From an uncultured virus (IMG/VR IMGVR_UViG_3300028840_007214) (taxonomy: Duplodnaviria; Heunggongvirae; Uroviricota; Caudoviricetes), in IMG/VR virus record IMGVR_UViG_3300028840_007214: DNA of 20,000 nt. One strand, written 5' to 3'. Position 1 is the first letter of the stretch; each line of letters begins with the position of its first letter. This document shows, in pieces, positions 3,603 to 19,705 of the stretch. The notes beneath the pieces were generated by a model. It worked only from the letters and a program-made list of their open reading frames with translations, did not search any database and was not told where the DNA came from. The translations under genes and the position numbers were made by a program.

Positions 3603-4631
3603 ATGATCAAATCTATTATCTTTTTAAAGAAAGGTATTAATGCTTGCACACATTACCGTGTTGATATACCTGCTAAATTTTTAACTCAGCTTAACTTTAA
3701 TGTAAGAATAAAAGAAACTATTCAAGCAGAGGATTTAAATGATATAGATAAGACTATATTTGTTTTTGGGCGCGCTGCTTCATATGATGAGTTAAATCTT
3801 TTCAGAGAAATCAAACATAGGGGAGCTACTGTAGTTTATGAATTAGATGATAATCTCTTAGACTTGCCTTCAGGTAACCCTGCAACTATTTTCTATCTAA
3901 GCAAACAAGGATATATTAGATCTTTTATCCGTGAAGCTAATCATGTTATTGTCACAAATGAAGCGCTTAAGAAAGTCTTGCAGAACTATAATCGGCAGAT
4001 CTCGTGTGTCGATAATTATCTAGATCTTGACTATGCGCGTATTGAATGCTCACCTAATCTTTTTGATAAACATTCAAAAAGATTAGATGCTTCTATCTTT
4101 GACGGGCGTTTTGTTATACTTTGGGCTGGAAGTATAACGCATAGAGATGACTTAAGAGTTTTGAGTAAACCGCTTTTAGCCTTTTTGCATAAATATCCAG
4201 AAGCTTTGCTAGTCGCTGTTCACTCATTAAACAAAGAGTTGCTTGTGCATATCTCGAATGAGCAGCTTTGTTTAGTCTCTGCTGTGCCCCCTACGCAATA
4301 CCTTAATTTACTTTCGAAGTTGTCTGCAGATGTCGGATTAGCTCCTTTATGCAGGCATCCTTTTAATGAGTGTAAGAGTAGACTTCGAGTTATTGAGTAT
4401 ATGGCTTCAAGCATCATCCCCCTTGCAAGCAATTTAGGACCGTATAGAGAAATTCTAGAAGGGACACCTTTTGCTGACTTGCTTTGTTCGGTGGGCTGGT
4501 ACGAAAAGTTAGAGTGGTTAAAGAATGAAGTAAACCTAGAAGTTCTAAAAGAGCATTTGTCTCAGTTTTGCCGAGAACGTTTTATTATTCAGAACTCTAA
4601 CTGGGCAGATGTCTTTATAAATCTCACCTAA
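3603..4631 (+). CDS. GT-B fold glycosyltransferase (GT4-like)
   Basis: Motifs YRVDIP, VVYELDDNL, ILWAGSITHRDDL and ADVGLAPL..HPFNECKS.LRVIEYMAS.IIPLASNLGPY are typical of phage GT-B enzymes. Confidence 0.85.
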   Translation: MIKSIIFLKKGINACTHYRVDIPAKFLTQLNFNVRIKETIQAEDLNDIDKTIFVFGRAASYDELNLFREIKHRGATVVYELDDNLLDLPSGNPATIFYLSKQGYIRSFIREANHVIVTNEALKKVLQNYNRQISCVDNYLDLDYARIECSPNLFDKHSKRLDASIFDGRFVILWAGSITHRDDLRVLSKPLLAFLHKYPEALLVAVHSLNKELLVHISNEQLCLVSAVPPTQYLNLLSKLSADVGLAPLCRHPFNECKSRLRVIEYMASSIIPLASNLGPYREILEGTPFADLLCSVGWYEKLEWLKNEVNLEVLKEHLSQFCRERFIIQNSNWADVFINLT

Positions 4632-4650: not shown

Positions 4651-4706
4651 TTTTCTAAGTTTAAATTGATTCTACTGTGTCCATTGAATTTGTTCAAGAG
4701 GATGAG

Positions 4707-6356
4707 ATGGCATTTTTAAAAGTCGCAAACGCGGTTGTTGTACGTAACTTAAAAGACTGGGAAGAATGGGGTGGTGAGTCTTTATTTCATACAAAGACTG
4801 CTCAAAAAGAGATTGTCTCAAAATATGAACCAGACAAATATCTTTTAACACATTGCACAATTATCGCTAGTGTAGATGTTGAAAAGGATAACCCTCATTT
4901 TATCACTCCCGAAACTACACGTTTTGTGAACAACAATTATGACGCTTGGGAAAGAGATCTGCTCTTAGGTTGCTATAAAACATTCATTGGTGCAAACAAT
5001 TATGTAGAGCATGTGCAGGTTGAAGATTTAGCAAAAGGCAAAGTGATTGATGCTGTTGCGCGAGAAGTTATCTTTCCTTCAAAGACTGCAAACGAGCGTG
5101 AGGCAAAATCGATCTATGTTGACATTTTAGTCGCCACTGATCGAAAACATAAAAAACTTGTTAAAGATATCGAAGAAGAAAGAACAAATAAACTTTCAAT
5201 GGGTTGTGCTGTTGCCTTTACGATTTGTTCTAAATGTGGTAATAAGGCAGAAGATACAGTACAGCTGTGCCGGCATATTAAATATGAAAAGGGAAATAAG
5301 TTTTTAGATGATAGCGGGGTTGAGCGCATTGTTGCTGAACTTTGTGGTCATAAAGATGATCCTGAAAGTGTAAAGTTTATTGATGCAAGTTGGGTGGAGA
5401 ATCCAGCTTTTACAGGCGCCGTTCTAAATAAGATCTTAATACCTGAAGGTGATAGTTCTGTACAAGCAAAATTAAAGTCTGCTTTTGAGGTGGGCGCAAT
5501 TACAGGTATTGAGTCATTACATCTCAAGAAAGTTGCCGGTACTAACTTTTATAAGGTCGCACAACCTGAAGATGAACCAGAGCCTGAGCTTGAAGAGGCG
5601 GCACCTGAAGAAGAGGTCGCACCTGAAGAAGAGGTCGCACCTGAAGAGCTTGCACCTGAAGAAGAAGCAATAGAAGAAGTTGAAACACCTGATGAGCTAA
5701 CTGAGATTTCGGATGAGATGACCTTTGGTGAAGTCAAAGATATTATCAAAAAGAAGTTAAAAGAAAAAGCCAAGCATGAAATTAAAGAAGAGCTTCTTAG
5801 AGAGCTTGAAGAAGAGTTTTCAGAAAGTGAACGCTCCGAAGAATATTTTGAAGAAGAAGGGCACACACGAGATACATTAGTTTCTTCTTCAGAGCTAAAT
5901 ACTGTTAAACAAGGCATTCATTATGATGAGAAAATGCCTTTCGATCAATTAGGCTACATTACTGCCAAGACACGTGAAGAAGCGATCAGTAAATTGTCTA
6001 CAGTACCCCGCAAAAAGTTTGCTGATTTGTTTTCTAAGTATTTTAGAAGCAGAGAAGGTGCTGAAGATATACACACTGCTATAAAGATTTTAGCACTTGC
6101 TTCACCGAATTCCTGGGAACGTTTAGCAAAGTCGAAAATTTCGGGTAAAGGTGCTGTTCTTCTATCTGCTTTCCTTGATTCTCTAATTAAAGCGAATTAC
6201 GATCAGCGAATTTATATGGCTGCTTTAAATTCTAGTAAGTTTAAGCATAGAGATACATTTAAAGCATATTTAAAACGTCTTTTCGGTCGCGAGCTCGAAG
6301 CAACTGAACTAAAGAAGGTTGTTCAAGAAGTGGAACGATTCAATCTTTTTAGTTAA
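4707..6356 (+). CDS. Putative prohead (capsid maturation) serine protease with CxxC...CxH insertion and acidic C-terminal extension
   Basis: ATG 4707 after GAGGA (in frame with the listed GTG 4677). NNNYDAW, YVEH, LSMG and FIDASWVENPA match the HK97/herpes-type protease motif order; sits directly before scaffold and capsid genes. Confidence 0.75.
   Translation: MAFLKVANAVVVRNLKDWEEWGGESLFHTKTAQKEIVSKYEPDKYLLTHCTIIASVDVEKDNPHFITPETTRFVNNNYDAWERDLLLGCYKTFIGANNYVEHVQVEDLAKGKVIDAVAREVIFPSKTANEREAKSIYVDILVATDRKHKKLVKDIEEERTNKLSMGCAVAFTICSKCGNKAEDTVQLCRHIKYEKGNKFLDDSGVERIVAELCGHKDDPESVKFIDASWVENPAFTGAVLNKILIPEGDSSVQAKLKSAFEVGAITGIESLHLKKVAGTNFYKVAQPEDEPEPELEEAAPEEEVAPEEEVAPEELAPEEEAIEEVETPDELTEISDEMTFGEVKDIIKKKLKEKAKHEIKEELLRELEEEFSESERSEEYFEEEGHTRDTLVSSSELNTVKQGIHYDEKMPFDQLGYITAKTREEAISKLSTVPRKKFADLFSKYFRSREGAEDIHTAIKILALASPNSWERLAKSKISGKGAVLLSAFLDSLIKANYDQRIYMAALNSSKFKHRDTFKAYLKRLFGRELEATELKKVVQEVERFNLFS
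5601..5665 (+). repeat. Coding tandem repeat gcacctgaagaagaggtc (APEEEV): two exact 18-nt copies plus two degenerate copies
   Basis: Copies start at 5601, 5619, 5637 and 5652. Confidence 0.9.
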
Positions 6357-7248: not shown

Positions 7249-7292
7249 TTAGATACTTGTAGTTCTTTGGTAGAAGCATTCGGGAGGTGATC

Positions 7293-7901
7293 ATGACGGT
7301 CAGTATTCAGGGTGCTGATTACGGGCTTAGAATCCTGTACATCGGCCACCGGAACACCCTCGGCTTCTTGGACGCGAATGGCTTTTCTAAAGTCAATTTC
7401 GTGGCTGGGACTACAATCAACTCCACTCTTTCGACCTCAACTCCCAAGGGCGTGCTCGCGGGTAGTGTTGCGGTTGTGAAGGGTTCGGATTTGATTGGAA
7501 ATCCCACTCCGGCAGCTTCACCGGAGCCAGCTGAGCAGCCGCTGGGATTGTTCATCAACGACGCAGCTGGATACGCATTCCAGTCCACATCAGCTGCGGC
7601 ATCAGGCAGGGCGCCTTACGTGGACAGCATGGGTACACATGAGGTAAGGTACTACGAGACCAACGAGCGGGATCAGTACGGTGTGCACACGGCTACGTTG
7701 CTCACTTACACCGCAGGCGATCCGCTGTATTGTGACAGCAGATCGGGTCTTTTGACAAACGTAGCACCAGATGATCTTTCAACGGCGCCTCCTACGGTGA
7801 CCAATGGGATCATTGCAGTGGCTTGGAATTGTCCGATCGCGATTCTGACTCGGCCGCCAACCACAGCTGACACCTCGATGAGAATCGCTTTAAGAGTCTA
7901 A
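7293..7901 (+). CDS. Putative capsid decoration/cement protein
   Basis: GGAGGTGA RBS favours ATG 7293. Ala/Thr/Gly/Pro-rich beta-type protein (PLGLFINDAAG; YTAGDPLYC...GLLTN) immediately upstream of the capsid gene. Confidence 0.65.
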   Translation: MTVSIQGADYGLRILYIGHRNTLGFLDANGFSKVNFVAGTTINSTLSTSTPKGVLAGSVAVVKGSDLIGNPTPAASPEPAEQPLGLFINDAAGYAFQSTSAAASGRAPYVDSMGTHEVRYYETNERDQYGVHTATLLTYTAGDPLYCDSRSGLLTNVAPDDLSTAPPTVTNGIIAVAWNCPIAILTRPPTTADTSMRIALRV

Positions 7902-7912
7902 GGAGGACTAAA

Positions 7913-8800
7913 ATGAGTGATCAAGGCCATGGTGAAGTCCTCAGCAATGAGGCTAAAAGCCAGATCATCGGGGACCTGATCAAGACCGCCGCAGGGCGGC
8001 AGAAGTTGGCAGCCTCGATGATTCAGCCGCTGAGAGCTCGTCGTGACTACACGAGCATCGGCAGAAAGACCTTCCTGGTTGAGCAGTTGCCTGATGGCGC
8101 ACTGCCCATCTATGACAGAGACCCGGATGCGGTCGCTTATGTCATTGGTGAGGAAGGTGAAAACGTGCTGGCTATTCAGAAGCCGCGCAGAGTCATCTTT
8201 CCGCTCTTCGAGATCGCGTCGAATCCTGAGATTCCGCTCACACAGGTGAAGGAAAGACGGTACGACCTGATCGAAAGAGCACAGGACCTGGCGAAGAGTG
8301 AAGTCCAGGCGGAAGAAGACACGAGAGTCTTCGCAGTAATGGACGCCATCCAGGCGGTCGGCTTTGGCGGTCTTCCGCCCAATCCTGACATCCCGGTGGC
8401 AGCTCCTATCACAGGTGATGTACTCGCCGACGCATTTGCGACGATTGAGCGTCATGACCTGAGAGTTGCGAGACTGTTCTTCAACGCCAAGGACTACACC
8501 GACGTGAGGAAGTTTGGCCGTGATATCCTTGATATCGAGAGCCAGGCAACCTTACTGAAGACAGGCCTGATGGCGAACCTTTGGGGCGCACAGCTGATGG
8601 TCAGCAGAATCGTGCCCGTGGGTAAGGTATATGTTTGTGCCGAACCTGAGTTCTTCGGCCGCATTCCGGTGCGTACGGAACTCACAGTGCTCAGTGCAGA
8701 CGATCCGAAGGCCCGCACGATTGGGTTCAGCATCTTTGAGAACCTGGGCATTGGTGCTTACAACCCGTTCGCTCTCACAAGGCTCGACGTCAGCAGGTAG
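7913..8800 (+). CDS. Major capsid protein, HK97 fold
   Basis: AAGGAGG RBS; 295 aa. AYVIGEEG, FEIASNPEI, AKSEVQAEEDTRVF and LWGAQLMVSRIVPVGKVYV fit HK97-fold capsid proteins; follows protease-scaffold-decoration and precedes a strong terminator. Confidence 0.85.
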   Translation: MSDQGHGEVLSNEAKSQIIGDLIKTAAGRQKLAASMIQPLRARRDYTSIGRKTFLVEQLPDGALPIYDRDPDAVAYVIGEEGENVLAIQKPRRVIFPLFEIASNPEIPLTQVKERRYDLIERAQDLAKSEVQAEEDTRVFAVMDAIQAVGFGGLPPNPDIPVAAPITGDVLADAFATIERHDLRVARLFFNAKDYTDVRKFGRDILDIESQATLLKTGLMANLWGAQLMVSRIVPVGKVYVCAEPEFFGRIPVRTELTVLSADDPKARTIGFSIFENLGIGAYNPFALTRLDVSR

Positions 8801-14112: not shown

Positions 14113-14402
14113 TGATTTTAGATCAATTAGTTGAGAAGAAAGATCTCTACATTTATCTCAAGTATCGTATACTTGAGCTACAGAAAGCTGAAGCAGACCT
14201 ATTTGTAGCGATCAAAGAAGATGAATCATTAAATAAGACCAAAAAGCTACAACACGCTGTTTTGCGTCTTAAAGGAAGCATCCGCGAATTAAGAAGGCTT
14301 AAGGCTTCTCTAGAAACAGGACGGCTTAAAGAAGAATGTAAAAGGATGTGGAGACCAGACGATGAAATGGGTGAGGAAGGAAGGCATCAAGATTCCGATT
14401 AA
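14112..14402 (+). CDS. Hypothetical helical protein
   Basis: TAATG coupling with the previous gene; overlaps the rtcB start. Confidence 0.7.
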   Translation: MILDQLVEKKDLYIYLKYRILELQKAEADLFVAIKEDESLNKTKKLQHAVLRLKGSIRELRRLKASLETGRLKEECKRMWRPDDEMGEEGRHQDSD

Positions 14403-15567
14403 ATCTTGGTGTGAATCTATTGATATTGAAGCTGAAAAGCAAGCTGTAAATCTTGCTAATCTGCCATTTGCTTTTAAACACATTGCTCTTATGCCTGACT
14501 GTCATGGTGGGTATGGCATGCCTATTGGTGGCGTTCTCGCTACAAATGGGGTAGTTGTCCCCAATGCTGTAGGTGTTGATATTGGTTGTGGTATGGGTTT
14601 CTTTGAAACTAATATCGACGCAGATGAAGTTGTTACAGCGCCAGATGATTTTCTTCGTAAGTTCGTTCAGGAACTTAAAAGAAGCATTCCTGTTGGTTTT
14701 CATCATCATAAAATAGCCCAGAAGTGGGAAGGTTTTAACCGCGCCCCTCAAACTCCTCCAGTCAAGCAAGAGCTCGAATCAGCAAGATTTCAGTTAGGCA
14801 CTCTTGGTGGAGGTAACCACTTTATTGAGTTACAGAGATCAGATACAGGCAAACTTTGCTTAATGGTGCATTCAGGGTCTCGTAACTTTGGTTATAAGAT
14901 CGCTAAATATTATAATGCTCTTGCTCAGAAGCTTTGTAAACGCTGGTATTCTAACATCCCTGAATTTAAAGGTGAAGATGGTTTAGCCTTTCTTCCCATT
15001 GAAACACTTGAAGCCAAAGCCTATTTAGACTCGATGAATTATGCCTTAGACTTTGCTAAAGAGAGTCGTGCGCATATGATGAATACCTCTATAAACATCC
15101 TTAGTAAATTGCTGAAATCGGAGCTTTCTTTAGATCTTAGTTTGGGGCGCGAAGTTAACATTCATCATAACTTTGCAGCTTGGGAAAATCATTATGGTAA
15201 GAATGTCATTGTGCACCGTAAAGGAGCTACTCAGGCACGGAAAGATCAGTTTGGTATCATACCCGGTTCTATGGGAACATCCTCTTACATTGTGCGTGGG
15301 CTTGGCAATTCAGAATCGTTTGAATCATGCTCGCATGGAGCTGGAAGAAAATTAGCTCGCGGGAAAGCCAATAGAACTCTTACAATGACTGATGTTGAAA
15401 AGGCTATGGGTGATATCGTTTTTGAGATTGGAGTTGACCGTAAAGGTAACCCCGATCTTAGCGAAGCGCCGCAAGCGTATAAAGATATTGATGAGGTAAT
15501 CGACGCTGAGAAAGATCTTGTCGAGGTAGTTACGAAATTGCAACCACTGGCTGTAATTAAAGGATAA
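14362..15567 (+). CDS. rtcB: RtcB-family GTP-dependent RNA ligase (2',3'-cyclic phosphate/3'-phosphate to 5'-OH)
   Basis: All hallmark motifs present: MPDCHGGYGMPIG, VGVDIGCG, LGTLGGGNHFIE, VHSGSR, HHN, HRKGA, IPGSMG, SCSHGAGR, EAPQAYK. Confidence 0.97.
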   Translation: MKWVRKEGIKIPIKSWCESIDIEAEKQAVNLANLPFAFKHIALMPDCHGGYGMPIGGVLATNGVVVPNAVGVDIGCGMGFFETNIDADEVVTAPDDFLRKFVQELKRSIPVGFHHHKIAQKWEGFNRAPQTPPVKQELESARFQLGTLGGGNHFIELQRSDTGKLCLMVHSGSRNFGYKIAKYYNALAQKLCKRWYSNIPEFKGEDGLAFLPIETLEAKAYLDSMNYALDFAKESRAHMMNTSINILSKLLKSELSLDLSLGREVNIHHNFAAWENHYGKNVIVHRKGATQARKDQFGIIPGSMGTSSYIVRGLGNSESFESCSHGAGRKLARGKANRTLTMTDVEKAMGDIVFEIGVDRKGNPDLSEAPQAYKDIDEVIDAEKDLVEVVTKLQPLAVIKG

Positions 15568-15602: not shown

Positions 15603-16022
15603 ATGGATAATCCTTATGATTGGGGTTTAAAGCAGGAAGCGGCATTTCTTGATCGCAAACATCGTAATGAAAAACGAGAAGAGTTAAAGAGCTCTACCTT
15701 AGAGCTAGACTTGATTTCATTTGATAAGTTAACCCATTTGGCCGAAAATCCTGAGAAAGAACCAGATCCTGATAAACCTCTAACTAGGTTATCTCAAGCT
15801 CAAATAGATCGAGTTTTAACTGAGTTAAATGTTGCTTGTCATATGAATGATTCTATGGTCAGCTTACCTTTAGCTGAGTTGAGCCATCTTTTAAGAGCTT
15901 GGTTTCTTTGCCGTCTTATTAAACAAAGCACAGATTGGGATAACCTTTGTGAAGAAGACAAAGAGGTCAGCCCACTTAACAGTTTAAAAGCCATTTATAA
16001 TCTTGTTAAGGATCGTGTTTGA
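15603..16022 (+). CDS. Hypothetical protein
   Basis: AGGAG RBS; 139 aa. Confidence 0.75.
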   Translation: MDNPYDWGLKQEAAFLDRKHRNEKREELKSSTLELDLISFDKLTHLAENPEKEPDPDKPLTRLSQAQIDRVLTELNVACHMNDSMVSLPLAELSHLLRAWFLCRLIKQSTDWDNLCEEDKEVSPLNSLKAIYNLVKDRV

Positions 16023-16495
16023 TGAAGGAGTTAGATATAACAATGAATGATTTCGACAAAGCTCAGGTGAAAGCTCTTGGGCGCGATATAGGTTATGGTA
16101 ACATAATGAATCTTGCGAGCGAATGCTGGCGTGAATTTCTCGAAGCTTCAGGGCACCCTTCTGGGGGAGAATTTGTTCCAGGCCCTTGTAAGGCATCAAC
16201 AGTACCCTGTGATTGTGGAGGTTCCTGTGACTGGTGCTGTGGTTCTGGATGGCTTACACTTAAAGTAAAAGAAGCAAAAGAAGCTTTAGGTGATAAAGAG
16301 CTACCTAAAAAGAAACAGCATGACATTACTGAGTTTGGTAATTATGATCCTCAAGTGTTTCAGCAGTTTTTAGATTCTAGTAGATCGTTTCATCTGTGCC
16401 ATACTCAAGCCTCTTCTTGGGGTATAGCGCATGTGCGTAAAGCTTTAGTTAATTGGATTAAAGCATTTGAGAAATTAGAAGAAAGCAGAAAATGA
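16019..16495 (+). CDS. Hypothetical protein with Cys cluster (CDC...CDWCCGSGW)
   Basis: 158-aa ORF. The start could instead be ATG 16022 or the ATG at 16043 after AAGGAG. Confidence 0.7.
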   Translation: MMKELDITMNDFDKAQVKALGRDIGYGNIMNLASECWREFLEASGHPSGGEFVPGPCKASTVPCDCGGSCDWCCGSGWLTLKVKEAKEALGDKELPKKKQHDITEFGNYDPQVFQQFLDSSRSFHLCHTQASSWGIAHVRKALVNWIKAFEKLEESRK

Positions 16496-16764
16496 ATCGA
16501 CGCGATTTGCAGCGGCTTGTTGTTAAACTTAATGTGCGTCTTAACAATCTTTTTACTGAACTACAAGAGAAGCATAGTTCTGAAAATATTCCTCTGCTTA
16601 AAGGCCAAATTTACGACACCCTTTGGAATTTACGAAGATTAAGTGGTCTTGAAGCAGGTAGCCCTTTTCTAGAGCATTTAATCACTCAAGAAGAGCATGA
16701 GCTTAGAAAAGAATTGTTGGAAGCAAAACCAAAGATCGGGGCTAGAAAGATTCGGTTCAAATGA
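16492..16764 (+). CDS. Hypothetical protein
   Basis: ATGA overlaps at both ends. Confidence 0.7.
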   Translation: MNRRDLQRLVVKLNVRLNNLFTELQEKHSSENIPLLKGQIYDTLWNLRRLSGLEAGSPFLEHLITQEEHELRKELLEAKPKIGARKIRFK

Positions 16765-16985
16765 AACTAGGGCATTTTCTTGAAATAATTACGTTAAACG
16801 ATTTTCAGAAAGCTTACGGACGGCATCTGAACGCACTTCGATTTAATTTCGGTTTCCCTTTCTGTCCTAAATGCGATAGAAGAATAGCTGGCTGGCGAAG
16901 ATTTCTTTTTTGGCGAAGAATCCATAATCGGAGGTGCCGGGAGAAATTTGGGCACCTTTTAAACGATTTTAGAAAGAAGAGCTAA
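16761..16985 (+). CDS. Small basic protein with CPKC...H...C
   Basis: ATGA overlap upstream, TAATG overlap downstream. Confidence 0.65.
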   Translation: MKLGHFLEIITLNDFQKAYGRHLNALRFNFGFPFCPKCDRRIAGWRRFLFWRRIHNRRCREKFGHLLNDFRKKS

Positions 16986-17287
16986 TGTCAGAAGAACTAA
17001 AGAAGAGAACTTGGTGTTGGATTATGCTTCCCGCTGATTATGAGATTCGTTGTGATCTTTGTAAAGGCGCTAACATTACTTGGTCTGAATATGAGAATCT
17101 GATTTGGTGTTATGACTGTGAAAAAGATACACCTGGAACTTCCGGTATTTTTGATGGGCCGATTATGGTTAATACGGTCCAACTAATGGGCATTTCTCTT
17201 GACCGTTTTGATTGTGTTAATGAACGAAGGCTTTATCTTCATCAGACTGATTCTGGTATTGATTGGAAACCAGAACCTCCAGAATAA
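16985..17287 (+). CDS. Zinc-ribbon protein (CDLC...WCYDC)
   Basis: 100 aa with two CxxC pairs. Confidence 0.7.
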   Translation: MSEELKKRTWCWIMLPADYEIRCDLCKGANITWSEYENLIWCYDCEKDTPGTSGIFDGPIMVNTVQLMGISLDRFDCVNERRLYLHQTDSGIDWKPEPPE

Positions 17288-17570
17288 GGATCTAACAACC
17301 TTGCGGGTCGTGGGAACCTCGACTCACGTTAAGAACGAGAGGAATGACTAGGTGGCTTTGACCGTTTGTCTCCTATCAGAGAAACGGTTGTGGGCAGATG
17401 AGCTCCCCACTCGTGTTAGCTTTGACACGACAAAACTTAGCTTGCTGAGCGCCGATCTCAGCACAATGATTCGGCCGGGGTGCTTGTTAATTCCTGATCG
17501 AACAGCTGGAATTGACTAGGTGTGCATTCCGAATAATGTACTACACTCGTAGATGGGTTGTTAGATCTTT
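17286..17570 (+). ncRNA. Putative structured non-coding RNA of unrecognised family
   Basis: Longest intergenic gap in the window; perfect 12-bp terminal pairing 17289-17300/17556-17567 enclosing nested helices and at least six hairpins; G-U wobbles are consistent with the + strand. Confidence 0.75.
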
Positions 17571-17589
17571 TAAGAGAAAAGAGGTAAAG

Positions 17590-18297
17590 ATGAAAGAAGA
17601 AGACATTTACAAACCTCAAAATATAAAAAGAACCGAAGAAGTTTTTTCACCCTCAAAGAAGTTCAAACTTGAGATCCTTTACTATTTCACAAAAGAAGGT
17701 TGTTGGGAATACTCTCGAGGTAAGATATACCGTGTCTTAGACAATAAAATTATTGCCGATATCAAAAGAAATTATTCTACCTTCCACCATAGCTTCCAAA
17801 CTAAAAACTCTCAAGAGTATCTAATCACCGGGCGCAGCTATATGGGGCAAACGATTGTCAATTTAGACGAGGAATGGGAAGTTTCTACTCCTGGGCCTTA
17901 TGGGGGGCAAGAATTTTGTTGGGCCGATCATTTTCTTTCTCCAGATGGTCAAACATTGGCTGTGGCTGGCTGTCATTGGGCTGGCCCATATGAAATCGCA
18001 TTTTTCGATTTTTCGAATCCCAAAGTTTTACCTTTACCTGTGCTCATGCAAGATGATGACACTTGGTATGATAAGACCTATGGTTGGACGGATAAGGGGT
18101 TTAAGTGGGCTAGAGGTCATGAATTATTTGTGCCTTGGAGTAAACGTGATCGTGATTTAACACTTGAAGAATTAGAGCAGATCAGTAAAGAGTTTGGTGA
18201 TGAAGATGACGATAAGCTTTGGAAGTGGGTAGATGATGAAGTTTGGCTTTGTCATCGTGAAGGTGATACAGTGCTTGTCAGAAAGATCGAATCTTGA
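17590..18297 (+). CDS. Hypothetical beta-rich protein with a WD40/TolB-like LSPDGQTLAV motif
   Basis: GAGGT at 17581-17585 supports ATG 17590 rather than TTG 17512; 235 aa. Confidence 0.75.
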   Translation: MKEEDIYKPQNIKRTEEVFSPSKKFKLEILYYFTKEGCWEYSRGKIYRVLDNKIIADIKRNYSTFHHSFQTKNSQEYLITGRSYMGQTIVNLDEEWEVSTPGPYGGQEFCWADHFLSPDGQTLAVAGCHWAGPYEIAFFDFSNPKVLPLPVLMQDDDTWYDKTYGWTDKGFKWARGHELFVPWSKRDRDLTLEELEQISKEFGDEDDDKLWKWVDDEVWLCHREGDTVLVRKIES

Positions 18298-18337: not shown

Positions 18338-18520
18338 ATGGCAACGTTTCGTGTTAAGCTTGAAGTAGTTCTTGACCTCGAATGCGCAGGAGACGAAGTT
18401 CCTCTTATTAGCTCAGTTATTAATGAGTTAGATTATAACTTCGTTTCAAATACTCCTGAAGTTCAAATTAAGCACACAGAGATTCGAGATAGTAACTTTA
18501 GTGAAAGCTTTTCCTTATGA
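18338..18520 (+). CDS. Hypothetical protein
   Basis: 60 aa; preceded by tandem TATAAT (18300-18305 and 18308-18313); ATGA overlap downstream. Confidence 0.7.
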   Translation: MATFRVKLEVVLDLECAGDEVPLISSVINELDYNFVSNTPEVQIKHTEIRDSNFSESFSL

Positions 18521-18948
18521 AGATTCCTTCAGTAGAATCAACATACAAAGTGCTAATGGATAAATCAAACAGGATTCTGGAGAAAATTGCCATGGAGCAA
18601 GAATCTAAAACTGTATTTCCTCCACTGTCTCAAGAACCTATTTTGCATGTTGATTCTACTCCTGATGCTAATTATCCTTTGCGCATCTTAAGAGCATATC
18701 GGCTTAATGCTGATTGTTGTTATGAAGTAACCGGGGTAGATGAGAAATCTAGAGTTATCTGGGATATGATGAATTCCTTTCAAGAGAAGCGCGCTAAGCT
18801 TCTTGATAAGGCTTTAGAGATCTTAGAACGCATGATTTTTATGTTGATTGTGCCTACGCAACTTGTGATGCCTGTTATACTTTCTTTTATGCTACGCAAT
18901 CAGCAACGCGAGATCGTAACGCAGATGTTTGCCCTCCGCAGATTGTAA
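18517..18948 (+). CDS. Hypothetical protein; possibly frameshifted near 18830 with a true end at 19031
   Basis: 143-aa ORF; an overlapping frame without ATG runs 18810-19031 and looks more coding-like. Confidence 0.6.
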   Translation: MKIPSVESTYKVLMDKSNRILEKIAMEQESKTVFPPLSQEPILHVDSTPDANYPLRILRAYRLNADCCYEVTGVDEKSRVIWDMMNSFQEKRAKLLDKALEILERMIFMLIVPTQLVMPVILSFMLRNQQREIVTQMFALRRL

Positions 18949-19082
18949 GAAAAAGCCCCTATCAATTTGAATCCACGGGAGATATTTACCCTACATTTAC
19001 TTATGAGCAAAGTTCTGGCTATATTCATTAAATTTATCTGGATCTTTCTCTCAAATAGGTATACCTTTAGAAGAGAATAGAG

Positions 19083-19301
19083 ATGATAAAAGTCGATAAA
19101 AATGGCAAATTACACTTAGTTTGCCATCATTGCTCTCAAGAATTCCATTATCCTCATTTTGATTCAGCAAACCCTTTTGAGACTCTACCGAAAGGTTGGT
19201 TGGGGCTTTATTTTCCAGAGCGCGGTATAGAGCTCTATTGTGGTAAAAAATCATGTTCGAATGTAGCTCATGCTTATCTAGGTTTACCTATAAATGTTTA
19301 G
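19083..19301 (+). CDS. Small Cys-containing protein (CHHC...LPKGW...YCGKKSC)
   Basis: 72-aa ORF with zinc-finger-like spacing. Confidence 0.65.
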   Translation: MIKVDKNGKLHLVCHHCSQEFHYPHFDSANPFETLPKGWLGLYFPERGIELYCGKKSCSNVAHAYLGLPINV

Positions 19302-19311
19302 AGGTTGAAAG

Positions 19312-19705
19312 ATGTACCAATACAAAGCAAGACATCTAAGAGTAGTTGATGGGGACACTTTAGATGTTGAGATAGACCTTGGCTTTGGCATTATTACTCG
19401 CCAAAGAGTTCGCCTTAAAGGTATTGATACTCCTAGGTATTGATACTCCTGAAACTTATGGAGTAAAGAAAAGCTCTGAAGAATATCAGGCAGGGTTAAA
19501 GGCAAAGGAAAGAGTAAAGAACGTATTAGATACTTGTGTCATTCATCATGGCCATTTTCTCATCGAGACTTCTAAGAAGGGTAAGTTTGGCCGTTGGTTG
19601 GCTGAGATCACTTTACCTCATTTTGTAACAGCCTCAGGTGAAACAATCTCTTGGTCTTTGAATGCTCTTTTGCTTGAAGAAGGGTTAGCGAAACCATATA
19701 ATTAA
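19312..19705 (+). pseudogene. Staphylococcal nuclease (thermonuclease, SNase)-family gene frameshifted by a 16-bp duplication
   Basis: GAGG RBS and ATG 19312 give MYQYKARHLRVVDGDTLDVEIDLGF...RVRLKGIDTP, then stop at 19441-19443. GIDTPE...GKFGRWLA...LNALLLEEGLAKPY continues in another frame. Confidence 0.9.
19419..19450 (+). repeat. Exact tandem duplication (AGGTATTGATACTCCT)x2
   Basis: 19419-19434 and 19435-19450 are identical. Confidence 0.97.

Follow-up and report, generated by a model that had tools for sequence, protein, structure and literature searches.

An unclassified 285-nt non-coding element in a huge-phage accessory region as a possible inserted foldback element

The window analysed here, a stretch of 20,000 nucleotides from an uncultured virus of the Caudoviricetes, contains at 17286..17570 of its plus strand a feature that is real and unclassified. 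It was delineated by its fold and its position in an intergenic gap, consists of a closing helix and a multi-hairpin interior, and is non-coding by all tests that were run. The initial annotation had proposed that it is a novel, highly structured non-coding RNA with a pseudoknot, and this identity is not established by the analysis presented below. The explanation that we tentatively favour is that it is a lineage-specific inserted foldback element which is transcribed with the operon around it. Its effect would most likely lie in processing or insulation between cistrons, rather than in a conserved function as a trans-acting RNA.

The 285 nt of the element lie between the stop codon TAA of the upstream gene (17285-17287) and the ribosome-binding site AAGAGG (17579-17584) of the downstream gene, which starts at 17590. 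These coordinates agree with the original description of a feature filling the space from the upstream stop to just before the next ribosome-binding site. The resulting gap of 302 nt, from the stop at 17287 to the start at 17590, is the widest non-coding gap in the window, the next in size being 134, 121 and 118 nt. The reported GC excess over the flanks is likewise found, with a GC content of 0.48 in the element and 0.52 in its centre against approximately 0.39 on either side, and the cumulative GC skew shows no inflection at the element. All genes of the window are on the plus strand in a compact array, which includes a glycosyltransferase (3603-4631), a prohead-protease-like protein (4677-6356), the major head protein (7913-8800), an RtcB RNA ligase (14362-15567) situated 1.7 kb upstream of the element, and an SNase-like nuclease (19379-19705). 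The AAGAGG-type ribosome-binding site points to host signals that are bacterial in style. Relatives recognised by their capsid protein are as large as 355-437 kb and bear terminal repeats, and the phage itself is of approximately 400 kb, with contigs of up to 128-179 kb in public assemblies; the record nearest to the window, G001, is a near-identical stretch of 21.5 kb that is rated 5% complete.

The genes from about 13 kb onwards have no counterparts within 10 kb or less of the capsid gene in 80 relatives, and the element can therefore be placed in a mosaic accessory region. The gene upstream of it (16985..17287, plus strand) codes for a 100-aa Cys-rich protein of no family, and none of its six relatives in viral contigs is followed by the element. 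The gene downstream (17590..18297, plus strand) codes for a 235-aa beta-propeller-like protein, whose family comprises 75 hypothetical proteins and for which a fold model was obtained with a pLDDT of 91.4; its matches in the PDB are generic beta-propellers (TM 0.3-0.49), and these structure matches offer no link to RNA. The two flanking genes are adjacent in none of the relatives examined, and there is no transposase near the element.

The element is closed by a long helix. The left inverted repeat, with the perfect 12-bp core GATCTAACAACC at 17289..17300, is the exact reverse complement of the right inverted repeat at 17556..17567, and inclusion of G-U pairs extends the helix to 16 bp (17286-17301/17555-17570, mean pair probability 0.95), just as the initial annotation had it. 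Beyond a 3-nt bulge the helix continues with inner segments of 7 and 4 bp, whose 5' strands occupy 17302..17313 of the plus strand (17302-08/17545-51 and 17310-13/17541-44, mean probabilities 0.85 and 0.59), giving a closing helix of approximately 27 bp in total. Perfect 12-bp inverted repeats less than 400 nt apart are not rare, since Markov simulations give an expectation of about 0.7 per 20 kb and four are observed in the window; hence the terminal helix counts mainly because it meets the two ends of the gap exactly, and not on account of the rarity of such a repeat. Its core consists of Watson-Crick pairs with wobbles restricted to the edges, a pattern that fits a terminal repeat at the DNA level better than a helix that evolved in RNA.

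The interior contains a succession of local hairpins on the plus strand. Hairpin A (17360..17389; 8 + 3 bp, pair probabilities 0.97 and 0.92), hairpin B (17390..17410; pair probability 0.57) and hairpin C (17411..17430; 8 bp with the loop GCUU, pair probability 0.96) are contiguous, with B directly abutting both of its neighbours, and hairpin E (17486..17516; 9 bp with a 13-nt loop, pair probability 0.75) lies further downstream. Between C and E lies region D (17436..17475), for which pair probabilities were used to compare two arrangements. It may form the nested hairpins 17436-49 and 17451-75, or it may form a candidate pseudoknot, in which the loop (17451-55) of a stem 17443-49/17457-63 is paired to 17471-75. 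In nested folding, the GCCGA/UCGGC pairing (17451-55/17471-75) has a probability of 0.94-0.98, as against 0.02 for the 7-bp stem 17443-49/17457-63, and the two are compatible with each other solely as a pseudoknot. The interior further contains an exact 9-mer direct repeat, GACTAGGTG, with one copy at 17346..17354 (extended as GGAAT-GACTAGGTG) and the other at 17514..17522 (extended as GGAATTGACTAGGTG), both on the plus strand. The 20-kb window has no further exact copy; the two lie 168 nt apart within the element, and both fall in predicted junction regions.

Scripted pair assertions confirmed that all helices listed in the initial annotation consist of uninterrupted standard or G-U pairs where they had been placed, but they do not all fare equally well as elements of the predicted fold. 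The long-range pairings 17335-39/17546-50 and 17341-46/17525-30 are indeed complementary, yet they have a probability of only 0.03. Forcing them costs 4.5 kcal/mol (-102.6 versus -107.1 kcal/mol), and 17302-08/17545-51 is a better rival for the same region. More generally, the minimum free energy structure has an ensemble frequency of 0.0008, and long-range pairings compete with one another.

The folding energy of the element was compared with that of dinucleotide shuffles, a test that had been proposed along with the RNA reading. The plus-strand RNA folds at -107.1 kcal/mol with a z-score of -5.21, which none of 200 shuffles equals, and the minus-strand RNA at -85.6 kcal/mol with a z-score of -4.02. 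Among 789 sliding windows of 285 nt across the 20 kb, the GC-regressed residual of the element is z -3.2 against -2.2 for the best other window, a comparison that is tilted toward the element inasmuch as its exact boundaries were picked to include the helix. When the closing helix is set aside, the interior (17314-17540) has a z-score of merely -2.18, with 5 of 200 shuffles equalling it, and -1.56 on the minus strand. Most of the folding signal thus comes from the closing helix (z -5.2 for the whole versus -2.2 for the interior), and the description of the element as highly structured rests mainly on its terminal helix. The presence of G-U wobbles in several stems had also been taken to indicate a plus-strand RNA rather than a DNA palindrome. 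This argument proves to be weak: the difference of 21.5 kcal/mol between the two strands is equalled or exceeded in 10% of windows of this G-rich strand (mean 8.5, sd 9.4), and the element folded as DNA still has a z-score of -4.43.

Searches for known RNA families bore out the initial impression that the element belongs to none of them. Rfam 15, in a test that took in RNase P, SRP, 6S, tmRNA, group I and group II introns, phi29 pRNA, Y RNA, riboswitches and small ribozymes, gave no match in the 20-kb window at gathering thresholds. ARAGORN found no tRNA or tmRNA gene in the window, and none in 17201-17650 at its default settings or with -ps or -ps80. Admission of Rfam matches with E-values up to 10 in 17100-17750 brought up five, all far under threshold, the best being UPD-PKib with an E-value of 0.26 and 21.5 bits, where the gathering score is 39. 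No intron family is among these sub-threshold matches, and a group I intron was rejected. An intron-bearing tRNA was likewise rejected, as -ps70 with introns allowed gave only three implausible calls, one of which overruns the element. The alternative of an intron or split gene was discarded too: the alignments of the downstream protein with its relatives start at residues 1-20 on its side and at the N-terminus on theirs, the upstream protein shows no similarity to these relatives (best E-value 4.4), and the upstream protein's own relatives are separate ORFs of 94-104 codons. A connection to Y RNA and Ro proteins was considered on account of the nearby RtcB gene, and UUGACUAG may resemble the stems of Y RNAs; the connection was rejected in view of the absence of a TROVE/Ro-type domain among 40 ORFs searched with Pfam and of any Rfam Y RNA match.

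The search for relatives of the element itself relied chiefly on a covariance model, R1, of 285 positions and 82 pairs, constructed from the window and the G001 copy, which recovered G001 as a positive control at 366.7 bits. This model found no full-length match in the loci around the major capsid gene of 80 relatives, where it returned a single 33-nt hairpin (E-value 4.7), and no match in three sets of whole viral records (0 of 5, 0 of 33 and 0 of 18), which together cover 56 phages, either relatives or other large ones; CheckV rates 14 of these records as complete. In the 22 loci with relatives of the downstream gene it returned only two hairpins of 35-37 nt, both in one locus (L143) and downstream of the gene. 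When the element was compared with 34 related records by BLAST, five of them showed short matches of 14-25 nt attributable to chance and the others none; blastn of 17200-17700 found no match in 50,697 phage records, and a blastn search of plasmid records was likewise negative. Pattern searches were equally negative with respect to the element. The 23-mer of its left end has no match in viral contigs, and the pattern of the inverted-repeat pair is absent from viral contigs and from 185,579 species genomes. The pattern GACTAGGTG...GACTAGGTG occurs in 47 viral stretches, none of which matches R1 and of which the 13 that were inspected are mostly glycine-rich repeat coding sequence, and a 10+10 version of the GACTAGGTG pair pattern occurs in 11 prokaryotic stretches with no model match. 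A loop-only pattern for hairpins A-C has one viral match, a GC-rich coding region, again with no model match. A scan of metagenomes with the alignment of the downstream protein returned solely a contig already known from the viral collection. The collection of homologues from viral sequence collections, which had been recommended at the outset, thus yielded no homologue of the element, and it is known as one copy, present in the window and in G001.

The same loci bear on the suggestion in the initial annotation that the element is a cis-regulatory leader of the gene starting at 17590. In none of the 22 viral loci with relatives of that gene is there a model match upstream of it, and the suggestion is not supported. 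In the closest relative of the downstream gene, with 73% identity, a different gene ends 1 nt upstream and the element is missing. The nearest upstream ORF on the same strand (at least 45 codons) lies 15 nt or less away in 12 of 21 loci, these 21 being those of the 22 in which the ORF script found the target ORF. The ribosome-binding site at 17579-84 lies outside the structure of the element.

The element differs between the window and G001 at a single position, 17555, where G is replaced by A, converting the U-G pair with T17301 into U-A and adding a 13th Watson-Crick pair to the core. The two sequences are identical over 15786-17554 and have nine differences over 17555-17725. Run X3 likewise has a contig that breaks at 17554, so that a boundary of strains or of recombination falls at the right arm of the element. 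Public metagenomes from sediment, seawater and soil contain the element unchanged, with no differences in the Logan contigs of runs X3, X4 and X5. Run X6 contains a relative with approximately 88-94% identity in both flanking genes, whose short contigs stop at 17253 and resume at 17644, leaving the element uncovered. Of the eight public runs listed, none is of RNA. No joints of a deletion form across the element are listed among the Logan contigs of X3-X6.

The interpretation that we favour, as a tentative one, accounts for the element as an insertion of approximately 282-285 bp bounded by inverted repeats, which would be a miniature foldback-type or moron-like insert. Its site is in a rapidly changing accessory region of a huge phage, and the accessory genes on either side of it are unrelated to each other. 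A direct repeat, TAAG, is found at the two ends of the element: its left copy (17285..17288) contains the stop codon and abuts the left inverted repeat, and its right copy (17571..17574) lies 3 nt (TTT) past the right inverted repeat. The chance of this 4-mer recurring within 0-3 nt is about 0.02-0.03 by our own estimate, and the pair is suggestive of a possible target-site duplication. Excision of the element together with one TAAG would leave TAA, 16 nt containing AAGAGG, and ATG, a stop-to-start arrangement that is unremarkable in this genome. The initial annotation had named target-site duplications and dispersed copies as signs of a MITE that would speak against an RNA; the former finds a partial counterpart in the TAAG pair, whereas dispersed copies were not found in the collections searched. 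All genes are on one strand with tiny gaps between them, from which it may be supposed that the element is transcribed as part of a polycistronic message. In such a transcript its ends would close into the helix of about 27 bp, bearing about six hairpins, and RNase III-type enzymes cut helices of this kind. Since a long helix suits cleavage of this type, processing or insulation between the flanking cistrons may follow from its presence.

In weighing the insertion, the width of the gap, the shift in GC content, the perfect repeat core with a closing helix that carries most of the folding signal, the z-score of the DNA fold, the TAAG pair, the absence from all relatives examined, the mosaic nature of the region, the strain boundary and the lack of a match to any protein or known RNA were counted for it. 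Counted against it were the single known copy, the 3-nt offset of TAAG on the right, the absence of an empty site among relatives, none of which has the two flanking genes side by side, and the lack of a transposase nearby, as well as the interior z-score, the three abutting hairpins and the 9-mer repeat, which a passive insert need not have.

The main rival reading is that the element is a genuine new functional structured RNA of the phage, of about 230-285 nt, a possibility that we regard as real but doubtful. Such an RNA would be cut out of the operon transcript at the closing helix to serve in trans as a decoy, a scaffold or an anti-defence RNA, and it would be new, given that no Rfam family is matched. 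In its favour, the element is the strongest folder of the window after GC correction, unmatched by any of its shuffles, it forms a GC-rich island without coding support inside an AT-rich genome, and three hairpins abut without linkers in the company of a doubled GACUAGGUG motif found nowhere else in the window. The only known variant also converts a U-G pair of the closing helix into U-A, but one SNP is no evidence of selection. This reading is further weakened by the lack of a homologue in any collection searched, including the 14 complete relatives or other huge phages, by the modest z-score of the interior and a strand asymmetry that is ordinary for this genome, and by the low ensemble frequency and competing long-range pairings of the predicted structure. 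In a more specific and improbable form, the element would be a structured RNA of one huge-phage lineage that is cleaved from the operon transcript and acts as a decoy or scaffold. As the helix keeps both ends together and RtcB is encoded 1.7 kb upstream, this RNA could perhaps be sealed into a circle by the phage's own RNA ligase; its targets would be host defence or RNA-repair pathways, with the GACUAGGUG copies as putative binding sites. Alternatively, the element could be a spacer or decayed remnant in which most of the pairing is accidental, with a chance 12-bp repeat and ordinary local hairpins. The frequency of such repeats in the window, the interior z-scores of -2.18 and -1.56 on the two strands, and the status of the element as a singleton without conservation are all in line with this; nevertheless we consider it unlikely, as the arms are flush with both ends of the widest gap, the helix of about 27 bp is predicted with high pair probabilities (0.95, 0.85 and 0.59), the residual z-score stands out among the 789 windows, and the GC shift argues for a distinct origin or constraint.

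Two other readings were considered. The element could serve as a site at the DNA level, working in double- or single-stranded form, namely a protein-binding region, a recombination or packaging signal, or an origin-like cluster of hairpins. The z-score of its DNA fold, the perfect core of the inverted repeat, the two exact 9-mer direct copies 168 nt apart and the strain boundary at the right arm are consistent with such a site; but the GC skew has no inflection, the related complete genomes have no counterpart, the repeat has only two copies, and there is no tie to replication or packaging genes, making this reading very improbable. Finally, a 55-codon frame beginning with GTG (17352..17519, plus strand), preceded at 8 nt by GAGAGGA, might be an unannotated gene for a 55-aa protein, with the hairpins being incidental. 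The frame is open, its Shine-Dalgarno sequence and spacing are plausible, and its codon score of 0.01 exceeds those of the other two frames (-0.54 and -0.71). This score is, however, at the bottom of those of the 33 genes scored (0.003-0.48), and 55 open codons in about 300 nt at 48% GC are not rare (10-20% by our own estimate). A word-indexed search of 5.8 billion proteins gave no homologue, with the frame itself absent from that collection and the neighbouring gene present, and phmmer on 1.84 billion representatives gave no match. Accordingly, the frame is probably not a gene, and there is only a very slight chance that this reading is correct.

Several known systems offer partial parallels to an inserted foldback element. 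Bacterial MITEs and foldback intergenic repeats, such as those of the Correia, RUP, ERIC, BOX and REPIN types, share with the element its terminal inverted repeats (12 bp, or 13 bp in G001), a short direct repeat near its two ends that may be a target-site duplication, the intergenic location and the non-coding nature, and also, if the element is co-transcribed with its neighbours as we suppose, the formation of a long RNA helix. MITEs are defined by many dispersed copies, whereas the element is known in one copy only, and its interior is made of independent hairpins rather than of a single long foldback. The helices cut by RNase III in T7 early mRNA and in rRNA operons provide a second comparison, the former being simple hairpins of 50-60 nt and the latter stalks that bracket conserved RNA. 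The predicted arrangement here is similar in that sequences bracketing a structured domain would form a long helix in a polycistronic transcript, but it differs in that the element is not conserved among relatives.

Among phages, the closest parallels are provided by MPME1 and MPME2, the former of which carries a small ORF. In PMC3029335, MPME1 is described as being 439 bp long with short left and right inverted repeats and 6 unexplained extra bp between one of these repeats and the target, and both appear as single insertions in near-identical phage genomes, located between accessory genes or at their ends. The element resembles them in its size of a few hundred bp, its inverted-repeat ends and the extra bases beside one repeat (TTT in this case); the MPMEs, however, recur at several sites in related phages, whereas the element is known from one site. 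A difference in sequence is also indicated by the negative blastn search of the 50,697 phage records, among which we assume the mycobacteriophages carrying MPMEs to be included. With regard to an RNA, Fremin, Bhatt and Kyrpides (2023; PMC10690425) describe candidate structured RNAs of viruses and phages with nucleotide covariation. In the terms in which that article presents them, these candidates are comparable to the element, which is non-coding, structured, intergenic, located on an uncultured phage contig and not in Rfam. A 15-nt motif was not found in three supplementary files of PMC10690425. The candidates as presented there show covariation, whereas the element is known from two near-identical sequences alone.

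For genome scans in general, the element carries a warning that a strong folding z-score does not establish a non-coding RNA when most of it stems from a single terminal inverted repeat and the sequence is a singleton lacking relatives. If it is nonetheless a functional RNA, it would represent an unclassified structured RNA of a phage of approximately 400 kb, encoded near a gene for an RNA-repair ligase. If, as we tentatively favour, it is an inserted foldback element, it would add to the miniature mobile or moron-like DNA of huge phages, which has, to our knowledge, barely been described, and it would illustrate how one insertion is able to introduce a long RNA helix between adjacent cistrons.

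Comparison of the window with its near-identical 21.5 kb sister record G001 revealed 9 differences, all of which lie at or after position 17555 (17555-17725), starting at the right arm of the structured element (17286-17570), against none in the preceding 1769 nt. In the public sequencing run X3, whose contigs contain the element, a contig break likewise occurs at 17554, and this run seems to carry both alleles of the gene that follows the element.

Matches to the doubled internal 9-mer pattern of the element (17346-17354 and 17514-17522) were chiefly to coding sequences for glycine-rich (GLG/GVG) repeats (viral-contig stretches L091, L098, L100, L110, L111, L114, L118, L124, L127 and others), several of them on giant-virus contigs. 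These sequences bear no relation to the element.

Beyond the 12-bp inverted repeat bounding the element, the ORF at 18517-18948 contains an internal 19-nt inverted repeat, with arms at 18531-18549 and 18642-18660 that are 95% complementary and separated by 92 nt. This repeat, stronger than the one bounding the element, is located in coding sequence, and folding of the region spanning it (18525-18666) yielded a z-score of -3.06. A near-perfect palindrome at 19046-19077 (centre AGGTATACCT), situated in a 134-nt gap 5' of the gene at 19083, may represent an operator or a terminator.

Five small ORFan genes lie in the 1.7 kb between the element and a phage-encoded RtcB RNA ligase upstream of it (14362-15567; Pfam E-value 1e-109); no tRNA genes were found in the window. 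GC content rises to 55-56% in the gene for the major head protein and in its immediate predecessor (7287-8800), versus ~40% for the genome.

The 235-residue protein encoded directly 3' of the element (17590-18297) belongs to no Pfam family and is predicted to adopt a β-propeller-like fold (pLDDT 91.4). Its 75 relatives are all hypothetical proteins, many of them approximately 370-410 residues long with a C-terminal extension, and those in the viral collection are carried on contigs ranging from 20 kb to 1.26 Mb, the majority exceeding 170 kb.
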